DNA of 64,000 nucleotides, taken from positions 5,990-69,989 of the forward strand of contig JBGSLG010000082.1 of assembly GCA_041740815.1 (NCBI GenBank), in the 5' to 3' direction. Source of the stretch: Bacteroidales bacterium. GTDB taxonomy: Bacteria > Bacteroidota > Bacteroidia > Bacteroidales > VadinHA17. Numbering within the stretch: the first letter of the stretch is position 1; every line of letters starts with the position of its first letter. A program made the position numbers and the translations under genes. Positions 15,877 through 55,752 of this stretch are shown here, piece after piece. The notes below the pieces were generated by a model. The model made no database searches. It was not told the DNA's origin and saw only the letters and a program-made list of their open reading frames with translations.

Positions 15877-15885
15877 GAGAATAAT

Positions 15886-23487: not shown

Positions 23488-24183
23488 TTGAAAATGAGAA
23501 TTACCGGTAAAATGCCCTGTGAGGCTTGCGGGAACAAGTGCGATCTCTATGATGCCTTCAGGAAGTCTGGCAGATTTTTCCCCGAATCAAACATTATACG
23601 GGCAAGGTTCCGTAAGCACGAGATGATTTGCCGGCAGGGTGACAACGTCAGTCATGCCATTTATCTGACCTCGGGAACGGCAAAGCTGTACATTGAAGGG
23701 ATTAATGGTCACAATATCATCCTTTACCTTATGAGACCACCGGCTTACATTGGCCTGCTGTCATTTTTTGAAAGCATTCATTACACTTATTCAGTGACGG
23801 CCATTGAAGATTCACAGGTGTGTATGGTTAAGCTCGAATCCCTTAAAGAGCTTTATCTTGAAAATCATGATGTACTCCTCAGGCTCAACATGGCTTTCGG
23901 TAAATCTGTAGCCCTGATAATGAAAAAGATCATATGCCTCAATCAAAAAAACATCAGGGGGCGCATTGCGGAGAGCCTTTTATCACTGGCTGCCTTTTAT
24001 GGCAACAACAGCTTCACCCTGCCCGTGACCCGGAAAGAACTCGGAGAGATGTCCGCCATCTCGGAGGAAAACACTGTAAGGCTGCTGACCGAACTTAAAA
24101 ATGAAGGCATAATAAGAGTCCAGGGACGTGATGTAACAATAATTGACACCGCCCTGCTTAGCCGGATATCCGATCTGGGATAG
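23488..24183 (+). CDS. Crp/Fnr family transcriptional regulator with an N-terminal Cys cluster
   Basis: 231 aa. N-terminal C-x2-C-x3-C (MPCEACGNKCD). cNMP-binding-type beta-roll (ICRQGDNVSHAIYLTSGTAKLY). C-terminal HTH RKELGEMSAISEENTVRLLTELKNEGII. Confidence 0.8.
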   Translation: MKMRITGKMPCEACGNKCDLYDAFRKSGRFFPESNIIRARFRKHEMICRQGDNVSHAIYLTSGTAKLYIEGINGHNIILYLMRPPAYIGLLSFFESIHYTYSVTAIEDSQVCMVKLESLKELYLENHDVLLRLNMAFGKSVALIMKKIICLNQKNIRGRIAESLLSLAAFYGNNSFTLPVTRKELGEMSAISEENTVRLLTELKNEGIIRVQGRDVTIIDTALLSRISDLG

Positions 24184-41077: not shown

Positions 41078-41243
41078 CATTTAAAATCAGTTTCACCCGC
41101 CCCCAATCCCCCGGGAAGACTTTCAAAGGCATGTATCAGGTCATCAATCTCCGGTATTGTGTTTTCGCGGAGGATATTTCCATTGCAGACGGTACGCTCC
41201 ATCCTATTCTTTATACCGCCCCGCAGGAATCACGGAATATTTA

Positions 41244-41251
41244 TAAATTTG
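41244..41251 (+). promoter_or_regulatory. -7 box (TAaaTTTG) for the acyltransferase gene
   Basis: taaatttg lies 12 nt upstream of the ATG at 41263, inside the longer track ORF (41131). Confidence 0.45.
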
Positions 41252-41262
41252 TATTCACTGAT

Positions 41263-42123
41263 ATGAAGGTTGTTGAGCCACATGACTTCGAGGCCCTCTC
41301 TTTCCTTTTCAGAGGCAACAAAGGGCACCGCCGCGCTGAATTTATCATGCGGATGCTGGCAATTGATAAGATTAATAATTTATATGACAATTCGGCGAAA
41401 TATAGCGGAGTCTCTTTTACTTCGGGCCTCCTTGATGATCTGGGAGTCAAATACGCAGTTGGCAACGCGGAACGCCTTCAATCCTTGCCCGACGGTGCCT
41501 TCATCACCGTCTCAAACCATCCTTACGGAGGCCTTGACGGAATTATGTCAATAGACCTGTTCGCATCCATCAGACCCGATTATAAATTCATGGTCAACAG
41601 GATCCTTTCAACGGTCAGGGCTCTCGACGACAATTTCATCTCTGTGGTCCCGGCAGGTAATAAAAAGACCGGCGTGAAAGCCGCAAGCATTAAGGGGATA
41701 CGTGATACACTCAGTCATCTGCGTAACGGCCACCCGGCTGGCTTTTTCCCATCCGGTGCCGTCTCGGACTTCAGCCCCGGGGAACTCCGGGTAAGGGACA
41801 GGAAATGGCAGGCAAGCATCCTTCACCTGATACACTCGGTAAGGGTCCCAATAATGCCGGTTCGCTTCTTCGACATAAACTCCGCTTTCTTCTATATTCT
41901 CGGTCTCATCAACTGGCGGATCCGCCTGCTCAGGCTTCCGTCGGAGGTATTCAACAAGACCCGCCATGAACAACGAATCGGTATCGGGAGGCTAATTACC
42001 GTAGAGGAGCAGCAACAGTTTCCGGATCCCGGATCGCTTGGCGCCTTTTTACGCCAGTCGGTATACGAAATGCCCCTCCCGGATAGATTTGTTCCGCGTA
42101 AAATGATTAATCTTACTAAGTAA
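41263..42123 (+). CDS. Lysophospholipid (PlsC-like) acyltransferase family protein
   Basis: About 286 aa from the internal ATG. ITVSNHPYGGLDG (acyltransferase His/Asp block) and GFFPSGAVS (second block). Confidence 0.7.
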   Translation: MKVVEPHDFEALSFLFRGNKGHRRAEFIMRMLAIDKINNLYDNSAKYSGVSFTSGLLDDLGVKYAVGNAERLQSLPDGAFITVSNHPYGGLDGIMSIDLFASIRPDYKFMVNRILSTVRALDDNFISVVPAGNKKTGVKAASIKGIRDTLSHLRNGHPAGFFPSGAVSDFSPGELRVRDRKWQASILHLIHSVRVPIMPVRFFDINSAFFYILGLINWRIRLLRLPSEVFNKTRHEQRIGIGRLITVEEQQQFPDPGSLGAFLRQSVYEMPLPDRFVPRKMINLTK

Positions 42124-42135
42124 AACCAAACCGGG

Positions 42136-42849
42136 ATGACTGAGGAAAAAAATCAGGGTAAAACCAGGATTTCGATGAAAACAAGTGAGATCATCAATTC
42201 AGTTTTCGGTGACAGGAGCAGGACAAACCTTCTGAAAAAATACGAACAGCAGGCATTAGCCTGGCTGGTTCAGCGCATACCGGCCTGGATCACCTCCAAC
42301 ATCCTGACAGGAATCGGATTCTTCGGGTATATAATAGTTTTTGGAAGTTTCCTGCTGGCTTCCTATGTCAGCAGGACCTACCTTCTGCTCGGACTACTGG
42401 GTTTTTTAATTAACTGGTTCGGAGACTCACTCGATGGCAGACTTGCATATTACCGCAAAATACCCAGGAAACAATATGGCTTTACCCTTGATATCACAAT
42501 TGACTGGCTTAGCATTATCCTGATCGGCCTTGGCTATATAATCTACGTCGACGGAATCTGGGAGGTTTTTGGATACGGCTTCGTGACAATGTACGCCTGG
42601 GAAATTATCCTTGCCCTGATAAGGTACAAAATCACCGGTAAATACTCAATTGACTCAGGTAAAGTTGGACCTACCGAAGTAAGGATCGCAGTGGGTGCCT
42701 GTCTCGTGGCTGAAGTACTTCTGCCCGACTCTCTTATCTATTCAGCAGGCGTTCTTGTAGTTGCTATTTTCATTGTCAATATATTGGATACCAATAAATT
42801 GCTTCGTATGGCTAACGAAATTGATAGAAAGGAAGCCCAAAGCAAATGA
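42136..42849 (+). CDS. CDP-alcohol phosphatidyltransferase family protein (second copy)
   Basis: 237 aa. DSLDGRLAYYRKIPRKQYGFTLDITID approximates the family motif. Multi-TM. Confidence 0.7.
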   Translation: MTEEKNQGKTRISMKTSEIINSVFGDRSRTNLLKKYEQQALAWLVQRIPAWITSNILTGIGFFGYIIVFGSFLLASYVSRTYLLLGLLGFLINWFGDSLDGRLAYYRKIPRKQYGFTLDITIDWLSIILIGLGYIIYVDGIWEVFGYGFVTMYAWEIILALIRYKITGKYSIDSGKVGPTEVRIAVGACLVAEVLLPDSLIYSAGVLVVAIFIVNILDTNKLLRMANEIDRKEAQSK

Positions 42850-42854
42850 TATAC

Positions 42855-42862
42855 TATATTTG
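42855..42862 (+). promoter_or_regulatory. -7 box (TAtaTTTG) for the GNAT-like gene
   Basis: tatatttg lies 22 nt upstream of the ATG at 42884. Confidence 0.45.
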
Positions 42863-42883
42863 TTTTCAGCCAATCTCACTCAC

Positions 42884-44005
42884 ATGAGCGAAATTACTGT
42901 TAAGGAAGTCGTTTCACGACGAGACCTCCGTCACTTCATCTATCTGCCTGAAAAGGTACACAGGGATGAACCGGACTGGTTGCCGCCTATTTACATGGAT
43001 GAGTGGGAACTGTATGACAGAAAGAAGAACAAATCTTTTGGCTATGCCGATGCCCTGCTGCTGCTTGCCTTCAGGGACGGTAAACCAGCAGGCAGGATCA
43101 TGGGTCTGATCAACCGGAGATATAACGAGATTAACAGCGAGGCACACGGCAGGTTCTGTTTCATGGAGTGTTATAACGACAGGGAGGTTTTTCATGCTCT
43201 CATAAGCAGGATAGAGGATTGGGCCCGGCAGAACGGCATGAACAAACTGGTTGGTCCGCTTGGTTTCTCGGACAAGGATCCGCAGGGATTCCAGATCGAG
43301 GGTTTTGAGTACCCGCAGTTCATCACCAGCGCCAACAATTCCCCATACATGGTGAACCTGATTGAAAATGAGGGATATGCCAGGAAGATAGACCTGGTGA
43401 ACTACCTCGGCGATATGCCGAAGGAGTTTCCTGTTGTTTATGAAAGGGTGCTTGAAAGAATAAACAGATCCCAGGAATTTACAATTACCGAGTTCCCGAC
43501 AAAGAAGACACTCAGGCCATATATACTCCGTGTACTTGAACTTATGAATGACACCTTTTCAGAGATATACGGCTTCGTGCCGCTCAACGACAAGGAAAAG
43601 GCGGATTTTGCGGCACGTTACATGCCTATAATCGATCCGAAATTTATCAAGGTGGTGGAGAAGGATGGGCAGCTGATCGGGTTTGCCATAGGATTGCCTG
43701 ACCTCAGTGCCGGCATAAAAGCCTGCCGGGGAAGACTGTTGCCCTTCGGGATCCTCAAGGTCCTAAGGGAATCAAAAAGGTCAAAGAAACTGATAATGAT
43801 GCTCGGCGGGGTCAGGAAGGAATTCAGGGGCAAGGGTATTGATGTGCTGATGGGAGTCAAAATACTCCAGGATGGCATCAAAAGCAGAATGGAAAGCCTC
43901 GACAGCCATCTCGTGCTTGAAGATAACCTGAGGATGAGAGGTGAATACGAAAGGATCGGCTGCAAGGTTGTCAAGAAATTCAGGATCTACCAGAAGGATC
44001 TGTAA
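42884..44005 (+). CDS. GNAT-fold (acyl-CoA N-acyltransferase-like) protein, uncharacterised subfamily
   Basis: About 373 aa from the internal ATG: MSEITVKEVVSRRDLRHFIYLPEKVHRDEPDWLPPIYMDEWELYD... Later LGGVRKEFRGKGIDVLM resembles the acetyl-CoA loop R/Q-x-x-G-x-G/A. Confidence 0.6.
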   Translation: MSEITVKEVVSRRDLRHFIYLPEKVHRDEPDWLPPIYMDEWELYDRKKNKSFGYADALLLLAFRDGKPAGRIMGLINRRYNEINSEAHGRFCFMECYNDREVFHALISRIEDWARQNGMNKLVGPLGFSDKDPQGFQIEGFEYPQFITSANNSPYMVNLIENEGYARKIDLVNYLGDMPKEFPVVYERVLERINRSQEFTITEFPTKKTLRPYILRVLELMNDTFSEIYGFVPLNDKEKADFAARYMPIIDPKFIKVVEKDGQLIGFAIGLPDLSAGIKACRGRLLPFGILKVLRESKRSKKLIMMLGGVRKEFRGKGIDVLMGVKILQDGIKSRMESLDSHLVLEDNLRMRGEYERIGCKVVKKFRIYQKDL

Positions 44006-44011
44006 CCACTG

Positions 44012-44246
44012 TCAGTCCTCAGTCCTCAGCCGGCAGTCTTCAGTCCTAGAAGGCAGTAGGCAGTAGGCAATAGGCAGTAGTGAAAATTAAGAATTAAGAA
44101 TTGATAATCAGCCTATTAGATTAACTGACCGCAAGACTGCACGACTGCAAGACCTTCAGACTTCAGACCTTTTGACCTTCAGACTCAGTTCTTCTGGCTT
44201 CGACCGCAGAACCGCAGGACCGCAGAACCGCAAGACCCCGACAGGT
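44012..44246. repeat. Left copy of the heptamer-rich non-coding element, inverted relative to 53057..53222
   Basis: Runs of cagtcct, ggcagta, aattaag, gcaagac, cttcaga and ccgcaga units. The core 44059..44153 matches the reverse complement of 53089..53190. By eye there are about 5 substitutions plus one extra aattaag unit. Confidence 0.85.
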
Positions 44247-47200
44247 CTATTCCCATGTGATGACTGAAATCCTCTTCTTCCCGTCCATTTTAACAGTCAG
44301 GCTGTTTTTAAACTGAACATGCGTGACATAATTGCCCTTTCTGAGAACCTTCTGTTTCTTCAGAATGTCCCAGTCTATCACTGAGTTCTTCTGATTATGC
44401 TGAACGGAGAAATAGCCGACATTCATTGAGGTCACGTTGTGAAAAAAGTGCGAACCGGATGAGGCATCGAGAGGAAAATCCTCAAGGCTGGTCTCAATAA
44501 TTATTTTTGCATTGCATATCTGCGGCCATGTGACCGGTATCCCAATCCACCTGTCGCGTGTTCCCCATCTCCCCGGACCCAGCAGAATATACTGCCTGCC
44601 GCTGCTGATCATCTCATCATTGAACATGTCTATCTCGGCTGCTATCTCAAGCGTCCGGGACTTGTCAAAAAGATCCCTGTCAACATAAATCACATCCTGA
44701 ATGTTACTGATCATACCATTCCCCATGCTCTTTTCAGTATATAACAGAATATGGGATTTGTCGATCTCGTCCATATTCACGTCATAGTCGAGTGTTGCTC
44801 CGATAATCGGTTTGATTTGAAGCAGGTAGAACGAAGCCTTATAATCACTGTCTCGTGTCAGGTCAATTGCAAACTCGATCTCCACCGGCGTGCCAAGCGC
44901 CTCCTTGACAATATCCAGAATCTCTGTCAGCGATTTGGCCAGAGGGATGTAATCGTACTTCAGGATATCGGCAAAATTGATGATACGGGGGCCCGCCTTG
45001 TCTATTCCCGGAAAAATAGTCTTGCTCTCTGCCGAATAGACCGATGCGCAATGTCTGATTACCCCGTGGCGTTCAGCGTCCTCAATGCTTAGACGGACCA
45101 ACCCTGCCGTATCTCCCTCAAGCAGGTTAAACTCCTTCTTATTGAGGTCAACGGCAAAAAGCTCGACCTGCGAATTAAGATACTGATCCTTGGGAGAATT
45201 ATTTTCAAGGTTGGGGTATTTGGGTGAGAACCGGAACGCCTTCTCGCCTTCAACCACATATGTCCCCAGTCCGACAGCAAGAACCGCAAACCCGTCCTCC
45301 GGCTGCATATGGCCGTACGGGTAATAGTTGTACGACTGGCTGACGCCGCTGATATGAGGATAATAGGTGTTTTCATGCTGCTCACCCACAACCTCCTGGA
45401 TTATGACTGCCATCTTCTCTTCTTCAATCTTGTAGTTGATGGCGCTGATATATCCCCGGGCAGTGTCAGAGTATATTGATGCATATACCAGCTTGATGGC
45501 ATCGGTTAATTGGGTCAGCCGGATTTCAATATCATCATTGATATTCGGAAGAAGATAGGTTTCAAAAATCCCGGCAAAAGGCTGCATAAGTGAGTCTTCA
45601 AACAACCCTGATGAGCGGACGGCCAAAGGCCTGGATATCTTACCGAGAATGATGCGCAGTTTTTTAACCAGGGCAGCTGAAAGGCTTCCTTCTATAAACA
45701 ACTTTTTAATTGTCTCGTAACTGGTTTCTGAAAAGACCCTGTTTCTGAGCTTGTTGTTATCCAGAAAATCCTCAAACTCATTGGTGCCGATGATAAATGT
45801 GCGGGGTGCCCTGATGTTAATGCCGGGTACATAAAGCGAGATATCAAAATTGTAGATCAGCGTGTGAATGAATGCCAGTCCGCGCCCTTTCCCTCCGAGC
45901 GCCCCGGGAGATAATTGAATTATATTGCTCTCCTCCAGGATCAGTGTCTCGTCAAACTCTACAATTTTACCCTTGTTTTTCTCATACTTGAGCCTCTTAA
46001 CCACGGCAACCAGGTAGTCTCTCAGCGACTCGGCATTCTTGAAATCGCTGATTTTTTTGGGCGCTATCTCCCTGGCGAGCTGAATCTCACCGCGTGCTGT
46101 GAGCCACAGTGAGAAATGGTTCTTCCGGGCGTGGTACAACAGGGTTTCTATAGGGATGGAATGAAGCTGTTCCTCAAACTCATTCATGTTCTTGGCTGTA
46201 CCAATGGTCCTGCCCGTCTCATCCTTGTAGATGAAATCGCCAAACCCCAGGTGGTAACTGATGAAATTCCTTATGTCCTGCGCCAGTGTATCTGAATTCT
46301 TGTAGATAAACACGCAGTTCAGCTCCTTTGCCTGCTTCTCGTTCTCCCAGTCAGAAGACTGAATGATTGTCGGAAGATCAGGGATTTCGGATTTTATGGC
46401 CCTGACAAGCTCAAACCCGGCGTTTTCGTCGAATTTTTCATCCTTCTGAAACTTCACATCGCTTATCAGGCAGAGAAAGAATTCCTTGTATTTGTTAAAA
46501 ATCCTGATTGCCTCTTCATAATTTGATGCCATCAAAATCTTGGGTCGAACCCGCAGGCGAAGCACCTTGTACAGCTCGTCCATTGTGCTGACATCCTCGA
46601 TGATTCGCCTGGTCTGCTCCATCACACAGTGATAAAGCAACGGAATATAGCGTGAGTAATACTTGGCCGAATCCTCCACAAGCAGTATTATCCGGCTGTA
46701 GCCTACCTTGGTATCGTTTTCAACATTCACATAATCTTCCAGTTGCTTTACCATGGCAAAAAATATCCTTGAATCACCGTTCCATACAAAAACGTTGTCG
46801 ATAAGATTAGTTCGTTTCTGTTCGTCCTGAAAGAATGCTATGTATTGATTGTTATTAAGCAGCAGGTAGATGGGGATATACTTATAAAGTGCCTTCAGCC
46901 TTTTGGATATCTCCATCGGGGCCTTTTTATCTACGCCCACCATGATTATGATCAGGTCAAAGTGCTTCAGGTAGAGTTTCTCGAGGGCCTCCTCAAATGA
47001 TGAGACGCCTGTGATGCGCGGTATGGTTGTTAAATTCAGCTGGTAGTATACGCCCAGGATATAGTCAGAAAATTTGCCTTCGCGCTCAAGACTGTACGCA
47101 TCATACAGGTTTGAGATGATAAGAATCTCCTTAACCTTGAATTTCATGAGATCATGAAAGATGTCCCGGTCGTAGTTATTCTTCTCCAGGAAATTCTGAA

Positions 47201-48506
47201 GCAGCTTCCGCTTGTTCAGAAGAAAATCCTTGGCCGCCTCGAACTTCTGCTTCAGCTCTTCATCGGTCCGGTACTTCCTGATGGCAACCTCGCCCTGCAG
47301 GGAATTTAAGTAGTTACATATCAGCGAAGAAATATTATTTATCAGGTCCCTCTCTTCCTTCATAAACGGACCTTCATGCATATCCGGAAAATCTTTTGTA
47401 TAGTATACCTCAACTTCCCCGATTTTGTCGTCAATCGTCAGAAAGGGCTGCCGCTGCCGCCACTTGGTTACCACAAAACCCGGCGAGGTGTAGTCCTGCC
47501 CGTCATAGCTGATCCGGGCTACGGTGCTTTCCGGATATTGCCAGGCATCAGGCATGATATAAGCAATCTGCTTCAGTGCATTCTCAATCGATTTTTCAGC
47601 CTGGAGAATTGATGTGGTCTGATTGATACATGATAACTCCTTCAGACGCTCCGTCTTCTCATACATGATCTTCTTCATGCCCATCTCCGTGGCGGTGACG
47701 GTATCAAGTCCGTAGATCAGGTTGATATAGCCCGATATGAGGTTTGCCATGTTGCTTAACAACACATCCTCGGATTTAAGGTAGCTATCCATATCTGGAA
47801 TCGGGAAGCCATCCAGATAGTAGAATTCGATCCAGCCCTGATTATTGTCCATGGTCTTGAATTCTTCCTTCAGGCACCATTTGTATTCGTCATACGCCTT
47901 ATCGGAACTGAGATATTCCTTCCCGCCGTAAACGATCCTTGCAACAGCATAATCAGGGTAACGCCAGGTTTTGGGCATATCCAGGCAGATCCGTGAAAGG
48001 GTATCGTCAATATTTTTCTCCTCGCTTAGCTTCCGTGACTGCTCCAGCCTTGCCGAGGCCTCTTCCCCATATTCTTCCTTCTGTTCGGCTGCCAGGCTTG
48101 AATTCAGATAGTTGCACAGAATAGTTGCAATATTCTCAAGCAGCTGCCTCTCCTCATTTAAAAACGGACCCTCATCCGCCCTGGGAAACTGCTTTGTATA
48201 GAAAACATCAATGGCCCCCCATTTTTTGTCATGCGTTTCAAATATCTGCTTCTGGATCCAGCGTGACTCCCTGAAAGTGTCAGGCCGGTACTCTCTGCCG
48301 TCATATTTAATACGTGCATATGCATATTCGGAAAACTGCCACGCCTTTGGAATCTCCTTTACTATCTCAAGCAGCGTTTCCTCAACACTGATTTTTTTAC
48401 TGATAATCTTGTTAATTGTGTAGATGATGGATAATCCCTTCTGACTCTGTATTTTCTCAGCCAGAAGTTTCTGCATCTCCTTTTGCCATTTGGATCTGTC
48501 TTCCAT
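44247..48506 (-). CDS. Giant signalling protein A: 3 x sensor-like repeat, pseudo-receiver, receiver (REC), PPDK_N-like ATP-grasp, conserved C-terminal domain
   Basis: 1419 aa. REC: RIILLVEDS...CLISDVKF...PTIIQSS...FIYKNS. ATP-grasp / PEP-pyruvate-binding-type motifs: GALGGKGRGLAF, PLAVRSSGLFEDSLMQPFAGIFETY, MAVIIQEVV, PVEIEFAID...FYLLQIKPI. C-terminus: LLGPGRWGTRDRWIGIPVTWPQI...SSGSHFFHNV. Confidence 0.8.
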   Translation of the reverse strand: MEDRSKWQKEMQKLLAEKIQSQKGLSIIYTINKIISKKISVEETLLEIVKEIPKAWQFSEYAYARIKYDGREYRPDTFRESRWIQKQIFETHDKKWGAIDVFYTKQFPRADEGPFLNEERQLLENIATILCNYLNSSLAAEQKEEYGEEASARLEQSRKLSEEKNIDDTLSRICLDMPKTWRYPDYAVARIVYGGKEYLSSDKAYDEYKWCLKEEFKTMDNNQGWIEFYYLDGFPIPDMDSYLKSEDVLLSNMANLISGYINLIYGLDTVTATEMGMKKIMYEKTERLKELSCINQTTSILQAEKSIENALKQIAYIMPDAWQYPESTVARISYDGQDYTSPGFVVTKWRQRQPFLTIDDKIGEVEVYYTKDFPDMHEGPFMKEERDLINNISSLICNYLNSLQGEVAIRKYRTDEELKQKFEAAKDFLLNKRKLLQNFLEKNNYDRDIFHDLMKFKVKEILIISNLYDAYSLEREGKFSDYILGVYYQLNLTTIPRITGVSSFEEALEKLYLKHFDLIIIMVGVDKKAPMEISKRLKALYKYIPIYLLLNNNQYIAFFQDEQKRTNLIDNVFVWNGDSRIFFAMVKQLEDYVNVENDTKVGYSRIILLVEDSAKYYSRYIPLLYHCVMEQTRRIIEDVSTMDELYKVLRLRVRPKILMASNYEEAIRIFNKYKEFFLCLISDVKFQKDEKFDENAGFELVRAIKSEIPDLPTIIQSSDWENEKQAKELNCVFIYKNSDTLAQDIRNFISYHLGFGDFIYKDETGRTIGTAKNMNEFEEQLHSIPIETLLYHARKNHFSLWLTARGEIQLAREIAPKKISDFKNAESLRDYLVAVVKRLKYEKNKGKIVEFDETLILEESNIIQLSPGALGGKGRGLAFIHTLIYNFDISLYVPGINIRAPRTFIIGTNEFEDFLDNNKLRNRVFSETSYETIKKLFIEGSLSAALVKKLRIILGKISRPLAVRSSGLFEDSLMQPFAGIFETYLLPNINDDIEIRLTQLTDAIKLVYASIYSDTARGYISAINYKIEEEKMAVIIQEVVGEQHENTYYPHISGVSQSYNYYPYGHMQPEDGFAVLAVGLGTYVVEGEKAFRFSPKYPNLENNSPKDQYLNSQVELFAVDLNKKEFNLLEGDTAGLVRLSIEDAERHGVIRHCASVYSAESKTIFPGIDKAGPRIINFADILKYDYIPLAKSLTEILDIVKEALGTPVEIEFAIDLTRDSDYKASFYLLQIKPIIGATLDYDVNMDEIDKSHILLYTEKSMGNGMISNIQDVIYVDRDLFDKSRTLEIAAEIDMFNDEMISSGRQYILLGPGRWGTRDRWIGIPVTWPQICNAKIIIETSLEDFPLDASSGSHFFHNVTSMNVGYFSVQHNQKNSVIDWDILKKQKVLRKGNYVTHVQFKNSLTVKMDGKKRISVITWE
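47301..48386 (-). repeat. Three tandem copies of a roughly 95-aa sensor-like module in the N-terminus of protein A
   Basis: aa 41-135, 167-262 and 305-402. Each has P-x-x-W-x-[FY]-[SP]-[ED]-[YS]-x-x-A-R-I-x-Y-[DG]-G, then G-x-[IV]-[DE]-[VF]-[FY]-Y, then [EL]-x-[SE]-E-[ERD]-x-L-[LI]-x-N-[IM]-[AS]-x-[IL]-[IL]-x-x-Y-[LI]-N. Confidence 0.7.
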
Positions 48507-48623
48507 TCTTAAGTCAGTTCAGAGGGGGGTTGGCTCTTTATCAGATGTAATTTAATATGAAAGTTAATCAATAACACATAGATTATTTCTTCAACGATTG
48601 GAAATTATGGAAATTTAATTATA

Positions 48624-48631
48624 TAAATTTG
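48624..48631 (+). promoter_or_regulatory. -7 box (TAaaTTTG) for gdhA
   Basis: taaatttg lies 37 nt upstream of the ATG at 48668. Confidence 0.5.
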
Positions 48632-48667
48632 TTTATAACAAACACTAATCCCTAAAAACGAACAACA

Positions 48668-50011
48668 ATGTCTAACCCCGTAGAAGATTTCATGGCGAGG
48701 ATCATCGCCAAAAACCCCGGTGAAGTAGAATATCACCAGGCAGTGAGAGAAGTTACCGAGTCACTTATGCCGTTTATACTTGAGAACCCGAAGTACCGTT
48801 CGGCAAAAATTCTTGAGCGTATGGCTGAACCCGAAAGAGTCATAATCTTCAGAATCCCCTGGATGGATGACAAGGGTGAGATCCAGATCAACAGGGGGTA
48901 CAGAATTGAGATGAACAGCGCAATCGGGCCTTATAAGGGTGGCCTGCGGTTCCATCCTACCGTTAACCTTGGCATCCTGAAGTTCCTTGCATTCGAGCAG
49001 GTTCTTAAAAACAGCCTCACAACCCTTCCCATGGGCGGTGGCAAGGGAGGATCGGACTTCGATCCAAAGGAAAAATCTGACGCCGAAGTGATGCGCTTCT
49101 GCCAGTCGTTCATGAGTGAGCTGTTCAGGCATATAGGTGCAGATACTGACGTGCCTGCCGGAGATATCGGCGTTGGAGGCAGGGAGATCGGATTCCTCTT
49201 TGGGCAGTACAAGAGACTCAGGAATGAGTTTACCGGAGTGCTTACGGGCAAGGGCCTCGACTGGGGCGGTAGTCTTATCCGCCTCGAGGCAACAGGCTAT
49301 GGCCAGGTCTATTTCGCCGAAGAGATGCTCAATACCCGGGGAGACAGCCTGAAGAATAAGATCTGTACTGTCTCCGGCTCAGGCAATGTGGCACAGTTCG
49401 CCGCCGAAAAGGCAATACAAATGGGCGCCAAAGTGGTTACAATGTCAGACTCCAATGGCTATATCCATGACCCGGAAGGCATGAACGAAGAGAAGCTTGC
49501 TTTTGTAAAGAACCTGAAGAATGTGAAGAGAGGCCGTATCAAGGAGTATGCTGATAAGTTCAAGTGCAAATATGTTGAAGGCAAGTCTACTCCATGGGAA
49601 GTACCCTGCCAGGTAGCGCTGCCCTCAGCCACCCAGAATGAAATATCAGGAGCCGATGCCGAACTGCTTGTCAACAACGGTTGCTTTGTGGTCTCTGAGG
49701 GAGCAAACATGCCATCTACTCCCGACGCCGTCAATATCTTCCTCCGTCACAAGATCCTGTTCGGTCCCGGAAAAGCCGCAAATGCCGGCGGTGTTGCCAC
49801 CTCAGGACTGGAGATGACACAGAATTCCATGCGCCTATCATGGTCACGTGAGGAGGTTGACACCAGGCTGCACCGTATCATGAAAGACATCCATGCCACA
49901 TGCGTTAAGTACGGTACGGGGAAAGACGGATACATAAACTATGTCAACGGGGCCAACATCGGCGGATTTGTCAAAGTTGCCGAGGCCATGCTCGCACAGG
50001 GCCTCGTTTAA
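48668..50011 (+). CDS. gdhA: NAD(P)-specific glutamate dehydrogenase
   Basis: 447 aa. KGGLRFHPTVNLGILKFLAFEQVLKNSLTTLPMGGGKGGSDFDPK (catalytic Lys region), VPAGDIGVGGREIG, SGSGNVAQ dinucleotide fold. Confidence 0.95.
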   Translation: MSNPVEDFMARIIAKNPGEVEYHQAVREVTESLMPFILENPKYRSAKILERMAEPERVIIFRIPWMDDKGEIQINRGYRIEMNSAIGPYKGGLRFHPTVNLGILKFLAFEQVLKNSLTTLPMGGGKGGSDFDPKEKSDAEVMRFCQSFMSELFRHIGADTDVPAGDIGVGGREIGFLFGQYKRLRNEFTGVLTGKGLDWGGSLIRLEATGYGQVYFAEEMLNTRGDSLKNKICTVSGSGNVAQFAAEKAIQMGAKVVTMSDSNGYIHDPEGMNEEKLAFVKNLKNVKRGRIKEYADKFKCKYVEGKSTPWEVPCQVALPSATQNEISGADAELLVNNGCFVVSEGANMPSTPDAVNIFLRHKILFGPGKAANAGGVATSGLEMTQNSMRLSWSREEVDTRLHRIMKDIHATCVKYGTGKDGYINYVNGANIGGFVKVAEAMLAQGLV

Positions 50012-50023
50012 AACTGCCATTTG

Positions 50024-50073
50024 CCTGTTCCTGACCCGGTCAGATTGCACCGGGGTCAGGAACAGGTTCTTTT
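50024..50073 (+). terminator. Intrinsic terminator-like hairpin after gdhA, 20 nt before the start of protein B
   Basis: cctgttcctgacccgg-(loop)-ccggggtcaggaacagg, followed by ttctttt. The stem is about 14-16 bp and GC-rich. Confidence 0.7.
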
Positions 50074-50092
50074 CATCAATCCATTACAGAAA

Positions 50093-53056
50093 ATGTACAA
50101 GCTCAGAAAAAACATTTTCAGGGAAACTTCTTTTGAGCTTCTGATGCAAAAAAGAGTTCAGTACGTGCTGCTGATCTGCAGCAGCTATGATGCATTCATC
50201 ATGGAGGAGGACGGTAAGATTGATGAAAAGGTCTTCAATGATTATGTGTCATTCAACCTGCGTTACCCTCCCCGGTTTATACATGTCACTTCAGGCGAAA
50301 AAGCCATGGAGGTACTGAGCCGCAGGCAGATAGACCTGGTAATTAATATGCTGAGCATCAGTGATCAGGATCCGTTTGAGCTCTCCCTGAACATCAAGAA
50401 AACCTATCCTGAAAAGCCAATCGTAATACTTGCTCCCGACTCCCGGGAAGTTACCCACAGAATAAACAGCGAAGATCTCACATCCATTGACTATGTTTTC
50501 AGCTGGCCGGGAAACACCGACATACTCCTCCCGATTATAAGCCTGATAGAGGATAAACAGAATGTGGACGAGGACAGCAAATATGAGGGAGTACAGTCAA
50601 TCATGCTGGTGGAAGGCTCGTTCAGGATGGCTTCCGTCTCCCTCCGCCACCTGTACTCAATTATACTTGAACAGTCACGCGAATATATGACCGAGGGCCT
50701 CAATGAGCATCAGAAATTTATGCAGATGCGCGGAAGACCAAAGATCCTCCTTGCTACCGGCTATGATGAAGCACAACGTCTGTTCGAAATACATAAATCG
50801 CGTCTCCTGGGTGTCATAGCAGATGTGGACATTAAAAATGAAAAAACGGACGCCTCCGGAATAATCGGCGATTTTATCAGGCAGATAAAGGATTATGACC
50901 CGAACATTCCCGTAATAATACAATCTGCCGACCAGGCAAACGAAAAATATGCAGGAGAACAGGGAGACGCATTTATTAATTTCAGTTCCAGATCACTGCC
51001 CCTCGATCTGAAAACAGTGCTGAAGAAACACTGTTCATTTGGAGATTTCATTTTTACAGATCCTGATACAGGCCGGGAGATAGCGAGGGTTTCAGACCTT
51101 CAGAACTTCCAGCGCAGGCTGTTTGATATACCTGATGATTCCTTTCGTTTCCACCTGTCGAGAAACCATCTTTCAAAATGGCTCTACGCCCGCGCACTCT
51201 TTTCACTGGCTGAGTTCATAAAAGAGGTAAGCATTGACGATTTTGCCAGCATCGACCAGGCCCGACGCTTCATCTTTGACACTATCGCCAACTTCAGGCT
51301 CAACAAGGGACACGGTATCATTGCCGATTTTTACCGCGAACACTTTGATGAATATCTTACATTCACCCGGATCGGTGCGGGATCAATGGGAGGAAAAGCC
51401 CGTGGCCTGGCCTTCCTGGATTATATCATTAAACAAAATCCGTATTTCGAAAGCTTTGAGGATACTGTGGTGTCGATCCCGCGAACAGTGGTGCTCAGTA
51501 CTGATGTGTTTGACGAATTCATGGCGCAGAACAACCTGTACTCTATTGGCCTGTCTGACGCCGGCGACAAGGAAATTCTTGATGCTTTCGTAAAGGCGCA
51601 GCTCCCAATGCGCATTCACAAGGACCTGTTCGTCTTCATCTCAATTATAAGCGGACCGGTCGCAATACGGTCTTCGAGCCTGCTTGAGGATTCTCATTTT
51701 CAGCCCTTCGCCGGGGTATATTCGACTTACATGCTCCCAAAAGCTGAGGATGATGCCCTCATGCTGGAGTTATTGAGTACCGGGATAAAAAGTGTTTTTG
51801 CCTCCGTTTTCTTCAAGGGAAGCAAAGATTACATGAAGGCTACAGATAACCTCATAGAGGAAGAAAAAATGGGTGTCGTACTCCAGGAGGTATGCGGACA
51901 GCAATATGAAAACCGGTTCTATCCAACCATCTCAGGGGTTGCAAGATCAATTAACTTTTACCCTATCGAACCCGAAAAGTCTGAAGACGGATTTGTCAGC
52001 CTGGCATTTGGCCTTGGCAAATACATTGTTGACGGCGGTATCTCTCTCAGGTTCTCGCCAAAATACCCCGCGAAGATCATCCAGTTGTCTGATACAAAAA
52101 TGGCCCTCCGCGAGACACAGCAGGAATTCTACGCTCTCGATCTCAACCCGGCAAGCTTTGTTCCCAGTACCGACGATACCGTTAACCTGCTTAAGCTGAA
52201 GGTAAGCGATGCCGAAAATGACGGGTCACTGAAATTCGTTGCCTCCACCTACGATTACCAGGACGACATGCTCAGAGATGATCCCATGGAGGGAGGAAGG
52301 AGAGTAATTACCTTCTCCAAAATCCTGAAGTATGACCTGTTCCCCCTTTCTGAGATTCTTAAGACGATTCTTGAGATCGGGCAACAGCAGCTTAATAATC
52401 CTGTAGAAATAGAATTTGCAGTAAATATTGACCCTGCAAGGAAAAAGCCTAACCTGTTCAACCTTCTTCAAATCAGGCCTATAGTCGAAATATTTGAAAC
52501 CGTAAAATTCAAGCTTGAAAATATTCCGCAGAGCGAAACAGTCATCTCATCCCAGTCAGCTCTCGGAAACGGAACGATAGACGGAATATGTGACCTCATC
52601 TATGTCAGAACTGAAAACTTCAATGCTTCAAAAAACCTTGATGTCGCCGTGAAACTTAATGAACTGAATGACGGTTTCCTCAGTGACGATAAGCATTATA
52701 TCCTGGTCGGTCCGGGAAGATGGGGGTCAAGTGATCCCTGGCTGGGTATTCCCATTAAATGGCCCCAGATCTCCGCAGCACGGCTGATAGTTGAATCGGG
52801 ACTCGAGAATTACCGTATCGATCCCAGCCAGGGTACTCATTTTTTCCAGAACCTCACCGCATTCAGGGTTGGATACTTTACCGTTAACCCGTTCATGAGT
52901 GACGGATTTGTCGATTATGACTTCCTCTCCTCGGCTGAAACCGTTTACGAGGATGCTTTATTACGGCATGTGAGATTCCCGGAGCCGCTTACAATCAGGA
53001 TCGATGGCCGGAAGAAACTTGGAGTTGTGATGAAGCCAACAGATAGAACGGACTGA
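50093..53056 (+). CDS. Giant signalling protein B: pseudo-receiver, receiver-like, PPDK_N-like ATP-grasp, conserved C-terminal domain (paralog of A without the sensor repeats)
   Basis: About 987 aa from the ATG at 50093 (MYKLRKNIF..). VQYVLLICSSYDAFIMEEDG. IMLVEGS...GVIADVDI...PVIIQSA. GAGSMGGKARGLAF, PVAIRSSSLLEDSHFQPFAGVYSTY, MGVVLQEVC, PVEIEFAVN...FNLLQIRPI. LVGPGRWGSSDPWLGIPIKWPQI...SQGTHFFQNL. Confidence 0.8.
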   Translation: MYKLRKNIFRETSFELLMQKRVQYVLLICSSYDAFIMEEDGKIDEKVFNDYVSFNLRYPPRFIHVTSGEKAMEVLSRRQIDLVINMLSISDQDPFELSLNIKKTYPEKPIVILAPDSREVTHRINSEDLTSIDYVFSWPGNTDILLPIISLIEDKQNVDEDSKYEGVQSIMLVEGSFRMASVSLRHLYSIILEQSREYMTEGLNEHQKFMQMRGRPKILLATGYDEAQRLFEIHKSRLLGVIADVDIKNEKTDASGIIGDFIRQIKDYDPNIPVIIQSADQANEKYAGEQGDAFINFSSRSLPLDLKTVLKKHCSFGDFIFTDPDTGREIARVSDLQNFQRRLFDIPDDSFRFHLSRNHLSKWLYARALFSLAEFIKEVSIDDFASIDQARRFIFDTIANFRLNKGHGIIADFYREHFDEYLTFTRIGAGSMGGKARGLAFLDYIIKQNPYFESFEDTVVSIPRTVVLSTDVFDEFMAQNNLYSIGLSDAGDKEILDAFVKAQLPMRIHKDLFVFISIISGPVAIRSSSLLEDSHFQPFAGVYSTYMLPKAEDDALMLELLSTGIKSVFASVFFKGSKDYMKATDNLIEEEKMGVVLQEVCGQQYENRFYPTISGVARSINFYPIEPEKSEDGFVSLAFGLGKYIVDGGISLRFSPKYPAKIIQLSDTKMALRETQQEFYALDLNPASFVPSTDDTVNLLKLKVSDAENDGSLKFVASTYDYQDDMLRDDPMEGGRRVITFSKILKYDLFPLSEILKTILEIGQQQLNNPVEIEFAVNIDPARKKPNLFNLLQIRPIVEIFETVKFKLENIPQSETVISSQSALGNGTIDGICDLIYVRTENFNASKNLDVAVKLNELNDGFLSDDKHYILVGPGRWGSSDPWLGIPIKWPQISAARLIVESGLENYRIDPSQGTHFFQNLTAFRVGYFTVNPFMSDGFVDYDFLSSAETVYEDALLRHVRFPEPLTIRIDGRKKLGVVMKPTDRTD

Positions 53057-53222
53057 AGGTCTGAAGACCTGAAGATGAAGGTCTTGCTGTCTTGCAGTCC
53101 TGCTGTCTTGCTGTCAGTTAATCTAAGAGGCTGATTATCAATTCTTAATTCTTAATTCTTAATTTTCACTACTGCCTATTGCCCACTGCCTGGGTAAGAC
53201 TGCCGATTGCCGACTGAGGACT
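53057..53222. repeat. Right copy of the heptamer-rich non-coding element, inverted relative to 44012..44246
   Basis: It fills the whole convergent intergenic gap between protein B and the T9SS cargo gene. Its reverse complement aligns with 44019..44175. Confidence 0.85.
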
Positions 53223-55752
53223 AATGAAGGAACGTCACATCTCCTACCATGTCAAAATACTCGCCGTCGGCATATCTTCCCGAGGCTTTCCACACATAGA
53301 CCCCCTGGGCTGCCAGGTTCCCGGCGCCAAAATAGCCGTCCCACCCTTTTGCCAGATCATGGCTCTCATAGATAAGCACACCCCACCTGTTGAAAATCTG
53401 TAACTTGTATTCAATCACATTCTCGAAAAATGGCCTGAACACATTATCCATCCCGGCATATACACCCTCACTCCATTGTCCTCCGGTAGGCCCTGTCTCG
53501 TTCCACTTGAAAACATTGGGATACTTAATGGTTCCTTCCTTCCATTCCACAACCACTGGCGTCTCCAATACCGCTGAGTCAATACAGCCATCAGCGGTTG
53601 CCACAGTCAGGGAGACAGTATATGATCCCGGACTCTCATACTTGTGATACGGATTCTCTTCGGTGGAGGTCTCCCCGTCTCCGAACCTCCACAACCACGT
53701 GTGAGCAAAGTAAGAGTAGCTGTAAAACACCACTATCTGTTCATTGTTAACCACATTCGTGGGATAAGCGTCAAAGATTGCCGAGGGATTCTGGTAAACG
53801 TTGATGATCCCGTTACGCGTTGACTCTCCTGCAATGTTGTGGACGGTCAGTTTAATTATGTAACTCCCCGGAACGAAATAGGTATGCACCGGGTTCTCCT
53901 CTGACGAATACTGTTTGTCGCCAAAATCCCATGTATAGCTCTCAGCGTGTATGCTTTTGTTTATGAACTGAACTGTCAGAGGTGCGCAGCCTGATGTTGC
54001 GCCCTCGAAGTCCGCCACAGGCAGGGGCGGCATGATGACAATTATCTGAATACTCTGTTGTGCTTCACAGCCCCAGCTCTCGGGAGGTATCGAGTATGTC
54101 AGGGTATGCGTGCCCAGACCGGCCACGGCCGGATCAAACACGTTGCCCGTAAGACCCGTCCCTGACCATATGCCTCCTGTAGGATAGGCAGTCAGTATAA
54201 CAGGGGGACCGTTGAGAAACGCTGTACCCGGACCGTCTAAAATTATGGATGGGAGAGCCATCACTGTTATCACTGCCGTGTCAGCAGCCATGCAATCGGT
54301 GTTCAGAATCTCATACTTGATTATATGGTTCCCTACTCCTGCCAGCGTCGGGTTGAACCGGTCACCCACAACCCCGCGGCCGGACCAGATACCCCCAAGG
54401 TCATGGGCGGTAAGTGTTATAGCCGGACTGTCTACGCAGAGGGTGTCAACAGGTGTGATGGTGGCATCCGGAGTGGCAACCGTGATGATCGCCTGGTCTG
54501 AATCGGAACAACCGTTGGCATCTGTTATCGAGTATGTTACGGTATGATTTCCGGCTCCGGCAACAGCAGGATAAAAAATGTTTCCAGTGACTCCCGTGCC
54601 GGACCAGACCCCGCCCGGATCACGGGCCTGGAGTACAATCACCGGGTCAGTTGAACAGGCAATCCCGGAGGTGATTATGGTGGCATCGGGTATGGGAGCA
54701 ACAGTGATGACTGTCTGGTCAGTATCACTGCACCCGTCACCGTTAGTGACCGCATACCTGACAGTGTGGTTGCCCGGGCCGGCAACGGAAGGATCGAAGA
54801 TATTTCCTGTAACTCCTGCACCGGACCAGGTTCCGCCCGGGTCATGAGCCGTCAGGGTTACCGGTGGCGCGTTGGCGCACATGGTGTCAACAGGTGTTAT
54901 GGTGGCATCAGGATAGGGCACAATCAGAATTCGTGCGGTGGTTTCTACCGGCGGATGGTCACCGTTGATGCGGTCTCGCGGCCCGCCGGGAATATTCGGA
55001 TCATCATAGGGGTTACAATAGTTCCAGTTCCGGAGGGTCACTTCAAAATACTGGCCGATCAGTTTGTCATTTGCCACGTATATTACGTCTGACCAGACTC
55101 CTGACCCGGTTACAGGACCTGTAAGGGTAATGACATTATCCCGGTAGGGAAAGATCCTTGTTCTTCCGTCAACGGTTACAGGCGCCCCGGTCATGGTTAT
55201 GTCAGTACCGTAGATCCACTGTATCCATCGGGTATTGACATTGGGGTTATCTCTCTCTTGCGGAGGGACGCAGTTGAACTGGGTCAGGTCCTGAAACCTG
55301 ACGTTGGCACTGTTTCCAAAGCAAATAGGATAGACTACAGGATTGATGTGCATGCGTCCCCCGTTATGATCATCGTCGTCCCAGACGGTCACTATCTGTT
55401 CCTGTGATGAAGAGGTGCAGAGTACCCCGTTGACTACCAGGGTAGCCTGCGGATGGTAATTACAGATATTGCCGGCTGAGGTATAGGTCACTGTTGCCGT
55501 CGCCTCAAAAATGCCTGGCCCTGTTTCAGTGGCAGGCACCGTTACTATTGTGCCGTTGTTCCAGTCGTACCTTATATGGACGGGATAGCCGTCATCATTG
55601 ACACCGGTATAGCTGACATTCCATGTCGCCGTCACAGGAGAGCATAATCTATCCGGGGTGATATTGTTAGCCTTTGAGAATATAGAGCAATTCTGCCCGG
55701 ATATGCTTGATGATAAGAGTATAAAAATTATATATGGGATCCATTTCTCCAT
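53221..55752 (-). CDS. T9SS type B (gliding-motility-associated C-terminal domain) cargo protein with Ig-like repeats and PKD domains
   Basis: 843 aa. Signal peptide ..SISG|Q. Four repeats of about 73 aa (PDATITPVDT.C...P.TLTAHDPGG.WSG.GVTGN.F.P.VAG.GNHTV.Y). PKD-like CAPLTVQFINKS...YTWDFGD. C-terminal FNRWGVLIYES...GWDGY......GVYVW...DGEYFDMVGDVTFLH. Confidence 0.8.
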   Translation of the reverse strand: MEKWIPYIIFILLSSSISGQNCSIFSKANNITPDRLCSPVTATWNVSYTGVNDDGYPVHIRYDWNNGTIVTVPATETGPGIFEATATVTYTSAGNICNYHPQATLVVNGVLCTSSSQEQIVTVWDDDDHNGGRMHINPVVYPICFGNSANVRFQDLTQFNCVPPQERDNPNVNTRWIQWIYGTDITMTGAPVTVDGRTRIFPYRDNVITLTGPVTGSGVWSDVIYVANDKLIGQYFEVTLRNWNYCNPYDDPNIPGGPRDRINGDHPPVETTARILIVPYPDATITPVDTMCANAPPVTLTAHDPGGTWSGAGVTGNIFDPSVAGPGNHTVRYAVTNGDGCSDTDQTVITVAPIPDATIITSGIACSTDPVIVLQARDPGGVWSGTGVTGNIFYPAVAGAGNHTVTYSITDANGCSDSDQAIITVATPDATITPVDTLCVDSPAITLTAHDLGGIWSGRGVVGDRFNPTLAGVGNHIIKYEILNTDCMAADTAVITVMALPSIILDGPGTAFLNGPPVILTAYPTGGIWSGTGLTGNVFDPAVAGLGTHTLTYSIPPESWGCEAQQSIQIIVIMPPLPVADFEGATSGCAPLTVQFINKSIHAESYTWDFGDKQYSSEENPVHTYFVPGSYIIKLTVHNIAGESTRNGIINVYQNPSAIFDAYPTNVVNNEQIVVFYSYSYFAHTWLWRFGDGETSTEENPYHKYESPGSYTVSLTVATADGCIDSAVLETPVVVEWKEGTIKYPNVFKWNETGPTGGQWSEGVYAGMDNVFRPFFENVIEYKLQIFNRWGVLIYESHDLAKGWDGYFGAGNLAAQGVYVWKASGRYADGEYFDMVGDVTFLH
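54028..54912 (-). repeat. Four tandem coding repeats of about 219-225 nt (Ig-like modules) in the T9SS cargo gene
   Basis: aa 281-575. DNA-level similarity is visible, e.g. ggaccagaccccgcccggatcacgggc / ggaccaggttccgcccgggtcatgagc. Confidence 0.65.

Follow-up and report, generated by a model that had tools for sequence, protein, structure and literature searches.

In the 64,000-nucleotide stretch of Bacteroidales DNA analysed here (hereafter the window), gdhA, the gene of an NADP-type glutamate dehydrogenase (GDH), is bracketed by the genes of two large paralogous proteins, A and B, which, in a reading we consider plausible if short of probable, belong to a large uncharacterised family of signal-gated ATP-dependent phosphotransferases acting on GDH or on the 2-oxoglutarate node. 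This reading draws on what is observed in the two proteins and their homologs, namely (i) the domain architecture, (ii) the intact nucleotide-site residues of an ATP-grasp domain, (iii) the invariant residues of a C-terminal domain (CTD), (iv) the regulatory input modules, and (v) the linkage with gdh and with genes of a 2-oxoacid:ferredoxin oxidoreductase; the phosphohistidine chemistry, the protein target and the regulatory role are what we infer. Bacteroides and relatives, prominent in the human gut and in anaerobic digesters, assimilate ammonia mainly through GDH, and, to our knowledge, nitrogen sensing and the tuning of GDH in these bacteria are poorly understood. The locus comprises the following elements (positions in the window):

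44247-48506, minus strand: protein A, an open reading frame (ORF) of 1419 aa
48507-48667, no strand: divergent intergenic region between A and gdhA, AT-rich, 161 bp
48668-50011, plus strand: gdhA, NADP-type glutamate dehydrogenase, 447 aa
50023-50074 (stem 50023-50067), plus strand: terminator-like hairpin with U-rich tail, 3' of gdhA, from folding energy
ATG 50093 to 53056, plus strand: protein B, an ORF of 987 aa

This is the layout described in an earlier note on this DNA (hereafter the original prediction), where A diverges from gdhA across 161 bp, gdhA stands alone between A and B, and a hairpin precedes B. The product of gdhA matches ELFV_dehydrog (PF00208, E 2e-88) and ELFV_dehydrog_N (PF02812, E 4.8e-51) in Pfam, and the NADP-specific GDH model PRK09414 in NCBIfam with 756 bits for a cutoff of 536. 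Aligned over 981 columns, residues 440-1416 of A share 36% identity with B (E = 0), a similarity far beyond chance by which A and B are judged to be paralogs, and the shared architecture originally claimed for them is borne out, with one domain order common to both, i.e., a pseudo-receiver, a receiver, a DUF5752-like linker, a PPDK_N ATP-grasp domain and the CTD. Ahead of these modules, A alone exhibits ~430 extra N-terminal residues, which consist of three GAF-like repeats of ~130 aa each. The domains are delimited as follows:

47256-48449, minus strand: GAF-like repeats of A, residues 20-417 (20-150, 145-277, 286-417), from a repeat hidden Markov model (HMM)
46719-47153, minus strand: pseudo-receiver of A (REC1), residues 452-596, which aligns with REC1 of B
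46263-46718, minus strand: receiver of A (REC2), residues 597-748, with D683 and the quintet EDDSK
45906-46262, minus strand: linker of A, residues 749-867, weakly DUF5752-like (PF19027, E 0.0016)
44799-45905, minus strand: PPDK_N ATP-grasp of A, residues 868-1236 (PF01326 at 870-1235, E 6.9e-41)
44250-44798, minus strand: CTD of A, residues 1237-1419, with GPGRWG, E and SSGSH(1353)FF, from alignment
44448-44450, minus strand: codon of H1353 of A, the invariant His of the CTD
50138-50572, plus strand: pseudo-receiver of B (REC1), residues 16-160, with a match to the YycF receiver
50573-51022, plus strand: receiver-like domain of B (REC2), residues 161-310, with D244 and the degenerate quintet EGDSF
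51023-51382, plus strand: linker of B, residues 311-430, from the invariant columns of a 16-sequence alignment
51383-52492, plus strand: PPDK_N ATP-grasp of B, residues 431-800 (PF01326, E 2.7e-36)
52493-53053, plus strand: CTD of B, residues 801-987, with GPGRWG, E901 and SQGTH(916)FF, from an AlphaFold2 (AF2) model and alignment
52838-52840, plus strand: codon of H916 of B, the invariant His of the CTD

The nucleotide-binding motifs reported in the original prediction were all recovered, namely GGKGRGLAF, AVRSSGLFEDS, EIEFA and LLQIKPI in A. In the 16-sequence alignment, GGK(A/G)RGLAF, RSSxLxEDS, EIEFA and LLQI(R/K)P are invariant, as are residues K435, R437, R526, S527, S528, E532, D533, E772, E774 and Q793 of B. 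Conservation was further counted in 139 diverse cores, i.e., the ATP-grasp together with the CTD, for which the query was B 440-987 (K435 and R437 thus lie outside this census), and R526, S527, S528, E532, D533, E774 and Q793 proved at least 97% conserved. The motifs GGK, RSS...ED, ExE and QxR are also kept in both halves of homologs carrying two cores. The catalytic residues of the ATP-grasp are in place, and every nucleotide-site residue of both A and B is intact.

Directly after the ATP-grasp, in every architecture mapped, comes the CTD, a domain of ~185-190 aa, rather than the ~170 aa first given for it, with the signature GPGRWG...E...SxG[ST]HFF. In the numbering of B, residues G875, R876, G878, G885, E901, S912, G914 and H916 are found in at least 138 of the 139 diverse cores, H916 being present in all 139, and the invariant residues are retained in both halves of the double-core proteins. 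The AF2 model of the CTD of B (pLDDT 88, pTM 0.87) has an alpha/beta topology composed, in order, of a beta-hairpin, a long helix, three beta-alpha units and a C-terminal antiparallel sheet, where the His is placed at the N-terminus of helix 119-127, directly past a strand and a loop. The claim that neither protein bears the canonical phosphohistidine motif is literally true, but an invariant SxG[ST]H does occur in the CTD at this predicted helix start. No Pfam model matches the CTD, which is a previously undescribed domain with an invariant His and always the partner of a PPDK-type ATP-grasp.

A divergent swivel phosphohistidine domain was entertained as the identity of the CTD, a suspicion that came from the likening of 'ILVGPGRWGSSDPW...IVES...GTHFF' to 'VLVTDMTDPDW...IVTNRGGRTCHAA'. 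This candidate was rejected by hmmsearch, by AF2 modelling followed by Foldseek, by hhalign against PpsA and PtsI, and by hhalign against a swivel profile of seven sequences built from PDB matches, and the likeness is kept only as an analogy. In our own reading, which is not the result of a tool, the CTD and the swivel domain have in common only the tripeptide G[ST]H and a compatible order of secondary-structure elements.

As regards the input modules, the repeat HMM finds three copies in A and two, three or four in A-like homologs; the closest relatives of A (74-86% identical) are ~138 aa longer and mostly have four repeats as against three in A. When the AF2 model of repeat 3 of A (pLDDT 94) was compared with the PDB using Foldseek, GAF domains led the matches (DhaR-N 4lrx, NifA 8jrc, 1vhm and 8dgd), with TMq of 0.44-0.64 and probabilities of 0.87-0.96 for E-values of only 0.05-0.4, the repeat being shorter than a full GAF domain. 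Single A repeats and the linker, including that of B, found no match in a Pfam search, and a weak match to the Nlh2 chain (4g3v) among PDB sequences is not significant (E 0.36). Because the Foldseek E-values are weak, the repeats are called GAF-like rather than GAF, and they are presumed to be ligand sensors. The linker of ~120 aa exhibits the invariant pattern GDF...IP...H..NH.S.W..AR in the 16-sequence alignment, and PF19027 is precomputed for several homologs of A.

Of the receiver-type domains, REC1 of B matches the YycF receiver among PDB sequences (phmmer, E 5.9e-5, B 44-142), without Asp at the acceptor position. This position is occupied by I, L, M or V in A-like proteins, and an acceptor Asp is present in no homolog group; REC1 is as such classed as a pseudo-receiver in both A and B. 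Pfam Response_reg (PF00072) scores 22.5 and 22.8 bits in A and B, respectively, under the gathering threshold of 30.2 bits, and is precomputed for many homologs. Where the original prediction gave each protein a receiver with an acceptor Asp, the quintet of REC2 is indeed canonical in A (E-D, D683, S and K), EDDSK being present in 120/120 A-like homologs, but it is degenerate in B (E-G, D244, S and F), where the Asp is kept and the second acidic residue and the conserved Lys are gone. Only seven of the 74 aligned closest relatives of B keep EDDSK, and some of them lack the acceptor Asp too; elsewhere, EDDSK is found in 41/43 sequences of the next clade, 73/91 representatives and 165/165 Bacteroides-genus sequences. 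In the B clade, one paralog thus keeps a phosphorylatable receiver and the other probably does not, and this divergence after duplication suggests a subfunctionalisation of the pair. The label "two-component-controlled" originally given to both proteins fits A, with its canonical quintet, but neither B nor the receiver-less cores; the degenerate receiver of B and the three GAF-like repeats of A had been overlooked.

The family is large. Homologs of B number at least 7884 in public data, where an identical protein is also found, homologs of A 2558 (1276-1582 aa long), and searches with the core reach at least 3190 clusters defined by 50% identity, 811 of which have E <= 1e-30. Its members can be discriminated into (i) core alone, (ii) one or two receiver-type domains followed by the core, (iii) GAF-like repeats, receivers and the core, and (iv) two cores. 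These last proteins, of 1500-1650 aa, possess two complete ATP-grasp plus CTD units without receivers, and one of them (P0291, at locus L089) exhibits a C-terminal Pol-beta-type nucleotidyltransferase domain. Throughout these architectures, the ATP-grasp and the CTD appear as an inseparable unit. The gene occurs in common human-gut Bacteroides, with 90%-identity clusters of 2222-4973 sequences that bear the names of the B. ovatus, B. finegoldii/salyersiae and B. intestinalis groups. In databases, homologs are named "phosphoenolpyruvate synthase" or "pyruvate, phosphate dikinase."

Gene neighbourhoods were surveyed with one genome per species, i.e., 80 loci, all Bacteroidota-like, with flanks of up to 10 kb in which the flanking ORFs were clustered. 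The commonest neighbour cluster is gdh, found at 28/80 loci and directly adjacent to the family gene at 21/80, in 12 cases divergent-upstream and in nine tandem-downstream; by our estimate, assuming one to two gdh genes per 4-5 Mb genome, ~1% would be expected by chance. The second commonest neighbours encode the alpha and beta subunits of a 2-oxoacid:ferredoxin oxidoreductase (TIGR03710, 651 bits; TPP_enzyme_C). At 20 loci (L040 3457-6369, L042 3438-6325, L020 4010-6881 and 17 other loci), these genes come immediately ahead of a tandem of an A-like and then a B-like gene, in the same orientation and seemingly as part of a single operon, and gdh follows at four of them. At L040, where the intergenic gaps are 28, 87 and 3 nt and gdh comes shortly after, the oxidoreductase, A-like and B-like genes look like one operon.

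Other arrangements include the bracket itself, which is identical to that of the window at L084, an 83%-identical relative; a B-like gene followed by gdh in another genome; and, at the Bacteroides-genus loci, a family gene upstream of and divergent from gdh with a prolyl oligopeptidase gene in between. According to database labels, gdh adjacency spans Bacteroides, Phocaeicola, Parabacteroides, Paludibacter, Saccharicrinis, Lentimicrobiaceae, Rikenellaceae and Salinivirgaceae. It extends to remote, metagenomic members of the family, with 34-44% identity to the core of B. A GDH of 412-429 aa from another subfamily (~31% identical to the GdhA of the window) is encoded immediately upstream of each of three double-core genes (L087 8001-12920, L088 1304-5875 and L089 8001-12965), the C-terminal end of such a GDH is encoded directly upstream of the family gene at the short locus L093, and a GdhA-type gene is directly adjacent to the remote member at L091 and L092; one remote-member locus has no gdh neighbour, and the contigs of L086 and L090 are too short for the neighbourhood to be judged. 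As the arrangements vary over distant lineages and GDH types, selection on the linkage with gdh can be argued, and the tie to the glutamate/2-oxoglutarate node proposed in the original prediction is substantially strengthened.

Within ~20 kb of the family gene, two gdh genes are found at L033 (2436-9810), L057 (1379-9780), L075, L079 and L065, and in Saccharicrinis-like genomes tatD, asparaginase, exbB and exbD genes are clustered between the two gdh copies. At L083 (8114-9996), in a genome of the Bacteroides ovatus group, the family gene is set apart from the prolyl-oligopeptidase/gdh unit by an insert of two genes, which encode an AAA_21/SMC_N ATPase and an HNH/NinG-like nuclease and may serve in defence or form a mobile element of small size.

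In the mechanism we propose, the ATP-grasp would transfer a phosphoryl group from ATP to the His of the CTD (H1353 in A, H916 in B), which would then pass it to a target; we know of no characterised PPDK_N enzyme that does not load a phosphoryl group onto histidine. Because of the conserved gene neighbourhood, the proposed target is the ammonia-assimilating GDH and, in some lineages, also the 2-oxoacid:ferredoxin oxidoreductase, or else it would be a metabolite of the node. Protein A would be gated by its three GAF-like ligand sensors and by its canonical receiver, phosphorylated by a kinase encoded elsewhere. As the receiver of B is degenerate, B may depend on A, e.g., in a heteromer formed via the shared pseudo-receiver, or on a ligand. 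The outcome would be an ammonia assimilation tuned to what the GAF-like repeats and the receiver sense, these being modules of a kind typical of regulatory enzymes. A narrower version, in which the family members form a new class of signal-gated protein kinases or dikinases whose ATP-grasp loads the CTD as a hitherto unrecognised histidine carrier for the reversible phosphorylation of GDH, and of a 2-oxoglutarate:ferredoxin oxidoreductase in some lineages, is put forward tentatively, as a possibility on the doubtful side.

Several points weigh against the phosphotransferase reading and its histidine carrier. No relative of the CTD was found by a profile search of PDB sequences (hmmsearch), and the Foldseek comparison of the modelled CTD with the PDB, which the original prediction had suggested, returned nothing significant (best E 0.013, TM < 0.3); hhalign gave probabilities below 1% against E. 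coli PpsA, E. coli PtsI and the seven-sequence swivel profile. The arguments for a carrier role of the His are its position, its invariance and analogy, and the invariant Arg, Glu and Ser near it could equally mark a catalytic or substrate-binding site. Regarding the neighbourhoods, gdh is not in the flanks of 52/80 loci, and 36/80 have neither gdh nor the oxidoreductase, one or the other being present at 44/80. The oxidoreductase would make 2-oxoglutarate only if 2-oxoglutarate is its substrate, and synteny cannot tell GDH as a protein target from a shared metabolite, be it glutamate, glutamine, 2-oxoglutarate or ammonia.

A rival reading is a small-molecule kinase or dikinase, modelled on the L-glutamine kinase Cj1418 of Campylobacter, whose phosphate acceptor would be glutamate, glutamine, 2-oxoglutarate or a derivative of these node metabolites, or whose product would be a signalling compound; in that case, the genes would be linked with gdh through a substrate or product in common and not through a modification of GDH. 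All the characterised enzymes behind the NCBIfam matches of the ATP-grasp (PEP synthase, rifamycin phosphotransferase, PigC and RedH) act on small molecules, the invariant Arg, Glu, Ser and His of the CTD could form the substrate site, the linker is conserved with no function assigned to it, and the linkage with oxidoreductase and gdh genes suits a metabolite-centred role equally. Yet GAF-like repeats, two receiver-type domains and paralog pairs are more those of a regulator than of a pathway enzyme, no further biosynthetic genes are consistently co-located over the 80 loci, and adjacency spans two GDH subfamilies only ~31% identical to each other. We hold this alternative rather unlikely, if a serious one. 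An improbable one is a self-contained phosphorelay, where the ATP-grasp and the CTD would replace a histidine kinase by autophosphorylation on the CTD His, which would hand the phosphate to a receiver Asp in its own chain or in the paralog, with an output via protein contact with GDH. It would account for the fully canonical receiver of A, for the invariant His of the CTD and for the histidine kinases missing, as the original prediction had noted, from the window ORFs scanned (small ORFs in part) and likewise from the recurrent neighbour clusters of the 80 loci. It sits badly with the receiver-less cores, whether standalone or double, which keep all the invariant residues, with B, the receiver of which is degenerate in its clade around an intact core, with the hybrid histidine kinase encoded divergently from gdh at one remote locus, and with the lack of a downstream output domain.

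That the adjacency is inherited synteny without function, the family working in an unrelated process, is a view to which we lend little credence. The 36 loci with neither neighbour speak for it, as do the neighbour clusters read by us as Skp, MurI, FabD-like and FolE-like, which mark the gene order of one clade; against it, gdh adjacency takes at least four arrangements, recurs in several lineages from Bacteroides to Salinivirgaceae, and involves a different GDH subfamily beside the remote double-core members. An ordinary phosphoenolpyruvate (PEP) synthase (PpsA) or pyruvate phosphate dikinase (PPDK), finally, is what the database names of the homologs imply, and NCBIfam PEP-synthase models do match weakly, with 20-57 bits. 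These matches are however partial, covering only ~110-200 residues of the ATP-grasp, for cutoffs of 598-1063 bits, and the NCBIfam models of PigC, RedH and RIF phosphotransferase match the ATP-grasp as well (E 4e-14 to 2e-5, far below cutoffs). Neither A nor B matches PEP-utilizers (PF00391) or PEP-utilizers_C (PF02896) in Pfam at E <= 0.1, three tests speak against any relation of the CTD to the swivel domain, and nothing extends past the CTD to form a TIM barrel, just as originally claimed; because of this domain content, such an identity is excluded for practical purposes, and the "phosphoenolpyruvate synthase" annotation of the family is misleading.

At the locus itself, the hairpin 50023-50067 has a minimum free energy of -33.1 kcal/mol (z = -5.34), with 0/200 shuffles folding as well, and is followed on its 3' side, past the end of gdhA, by UUCUUUUC. 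A simple consensus terminator scan did not detect it, likely on account of the loop limit of 3-8 nt of the scan. The end of the stem lies 25 nt from the ATG of B. A longer ORF for B, of 1011 aa, would start from TTG 50021, which is unlikely because it would run through this terminator hairpin of gdhA; B likely starts at ATG 50093, as a 987-aa protein, and its PPDK_N match corresponds to 455-824 in the numbering of the 1011-aa ORF and to 431-800 in that of the 987-aa protein. In the 161-bp gap between A and gdhA, ~30 nt 5' of the gdhA ATG, TAAATTTG resembles, in our reading rather than by a tool, the Bacteroides TAnnTTTG -7 element; a sigma-70 consensus promoter scan returned nothing in 48507-48667, and an Rfam search of 43500-53500 found no RNA family.

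Adjoining A, a conserved three-gene cluster (41131-44005) encodes acyltransferase, CDP-alcohol phosphatidyltransferase-like and GNAT-like proteins; it has the look of lipid modification, with no evident tie to A, gdhA or B, and is likewise found beside the A gene of L084 (915-3658). Elsewhere in the window, a metallophosphoesterase gene is followed by that of a 952-aa protein with sCache, PAS, CBS and DUF294 nucleotidyltransferase domains (15106-18744), and a sodium:solute symporter gene lies at 20819-22510. Cyclic-nucleotide genes are unusually dense (1756-3696, 6744-8138 and 23488-24183), i.e., two adenylate/guanylate cyclase-domain proteins, one with Y_Y_Y and one fused to HD, and a Crp-type cNMP-binding regulator. 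The window also encodes PorZ-type and TonB-dependent-receiver-type proteins which, with homologs of B named from Bacteroidales metagenome-assembled genomes, mark a Bacteroidales-like chromosome.

Literature searches on PPDK_N with response regulators, on DUF5752, on the database protein name and on the regulation of Bacteroides GdhA returned nothing on this architecture or on its link with GDH, and no characterised member was found, in keeping with the original prediction. The GDH of Bacteroides is said to undergo reversible inactivation in vivo, an effect for which no report was located in the literature searched. With reference to Abrahams and Abratt (1998), a 2015 paper describes inhibition of the NAD(P)H-dependent GDH of B. 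fragilis when organic nitrogen is high. Baggio and Morrison (1996), the title of which, as given in a reference list, concerns "trans-acting gene(s) downstream of gdhA," is not counted as support, because at the Bacteroides-genus loci surveyed the family gene lies upstream, on the divergent side of gdh. An initial identification of gdhA as BT1970 was dropped; BT1971 is a catalase, and no paper was found tying BT1969-1972 to the family of A and B.

The family is a specific candidate for the means by which the 2-oxoglutarate/glutamate node is controlled, whether post-translationally or through metabolites, and its linkage with gdh across many bacteria points to an ATP-driven control of ammonia assimilation. 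Were GDH phosphorylated by these proteins, this would supply a missing mechanism, namely the post-translational control of ammonia assimilation in Bacteroidota, and would fill the functional place that GlnD/GlnE/NtrBC or PknG-GarA take in other phyla. With a known ATP-grasp joined to an undescribed partner domain and a set of sensors, there is a realistic chance of new chemistry or of a new regulatory system, and the partnership of the CTD with a PPDK-type ATP-grasp may extend the known chemistry of that enzyme superfamily. A single locus here offers a pair of paralogs, one with a canonical receiver and one with a degenerate one.

Among known systems, PpsA and PPDK have in common with A and B the N-terminal PPDK_N ATP-grasp with the motifs GGK, RSS..ED, ExE and QxR; unlike them, A and B possess neither a swivel domain nor a PEP/pyruvate TIM barrel, the ATP-grasp being followed instead by the ~190-aa CTD, and exhibit at the N-terminus receiver and pseudo-receiver modules, with GAF-like repeats in A. 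Rifampin phosphotransferase, PigC/RedH and Cj1418, which phosphorylate acceptors other than pyruvate, resemble A and B in having the ATP-grasp first and a His-bearing domain at the C-terminal end. In these enzymes, however, the C-terminal domain is a canonical swivel (residues 777-861 of 5fbs match the swivel of PpsA, E 6e-17), which the CTD of A and B does not match, and a dedicated substrate-binding domain, absent from A and B, lies between the two. In response regulators with enzymatic output, a receiver stands N-terminal to an enzyme domain, as the EDDSK receiver of A does, but A and B have an extra pseudo-receiver in front, and only three of the five residues remain in the receiver of B; in the literature searched, no response regulator with a PPDK_N-type output was found described. 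The likeness to Enzyme I-Ntr (PtsP) of the nitrogen phosphotransferase system, a GAF sensor fused to a phosphohistidine-forming enzyme and reporting the glutamine/2-oxoglutarate status, is by analogy only, as PtsP uses PEP and not ATP and has a swivel and a TIM barrel without ATP-grasp; hhalign detected no homology between the CTD and E. coli PtsI. With folds unrelated and no FHA adaptor at A and B, the closeness to PknG-GarA/OdhI, which acts on 2-oxoglutarate dehydrogenase, GDH and GOGAT in Actinobacteria, to AceK and to GlnE/GlnD is likewise one of function by analogy, i.e., a signal-regulated post-translational control exerted at the 2-oxoglutarate/glutamate branch point.

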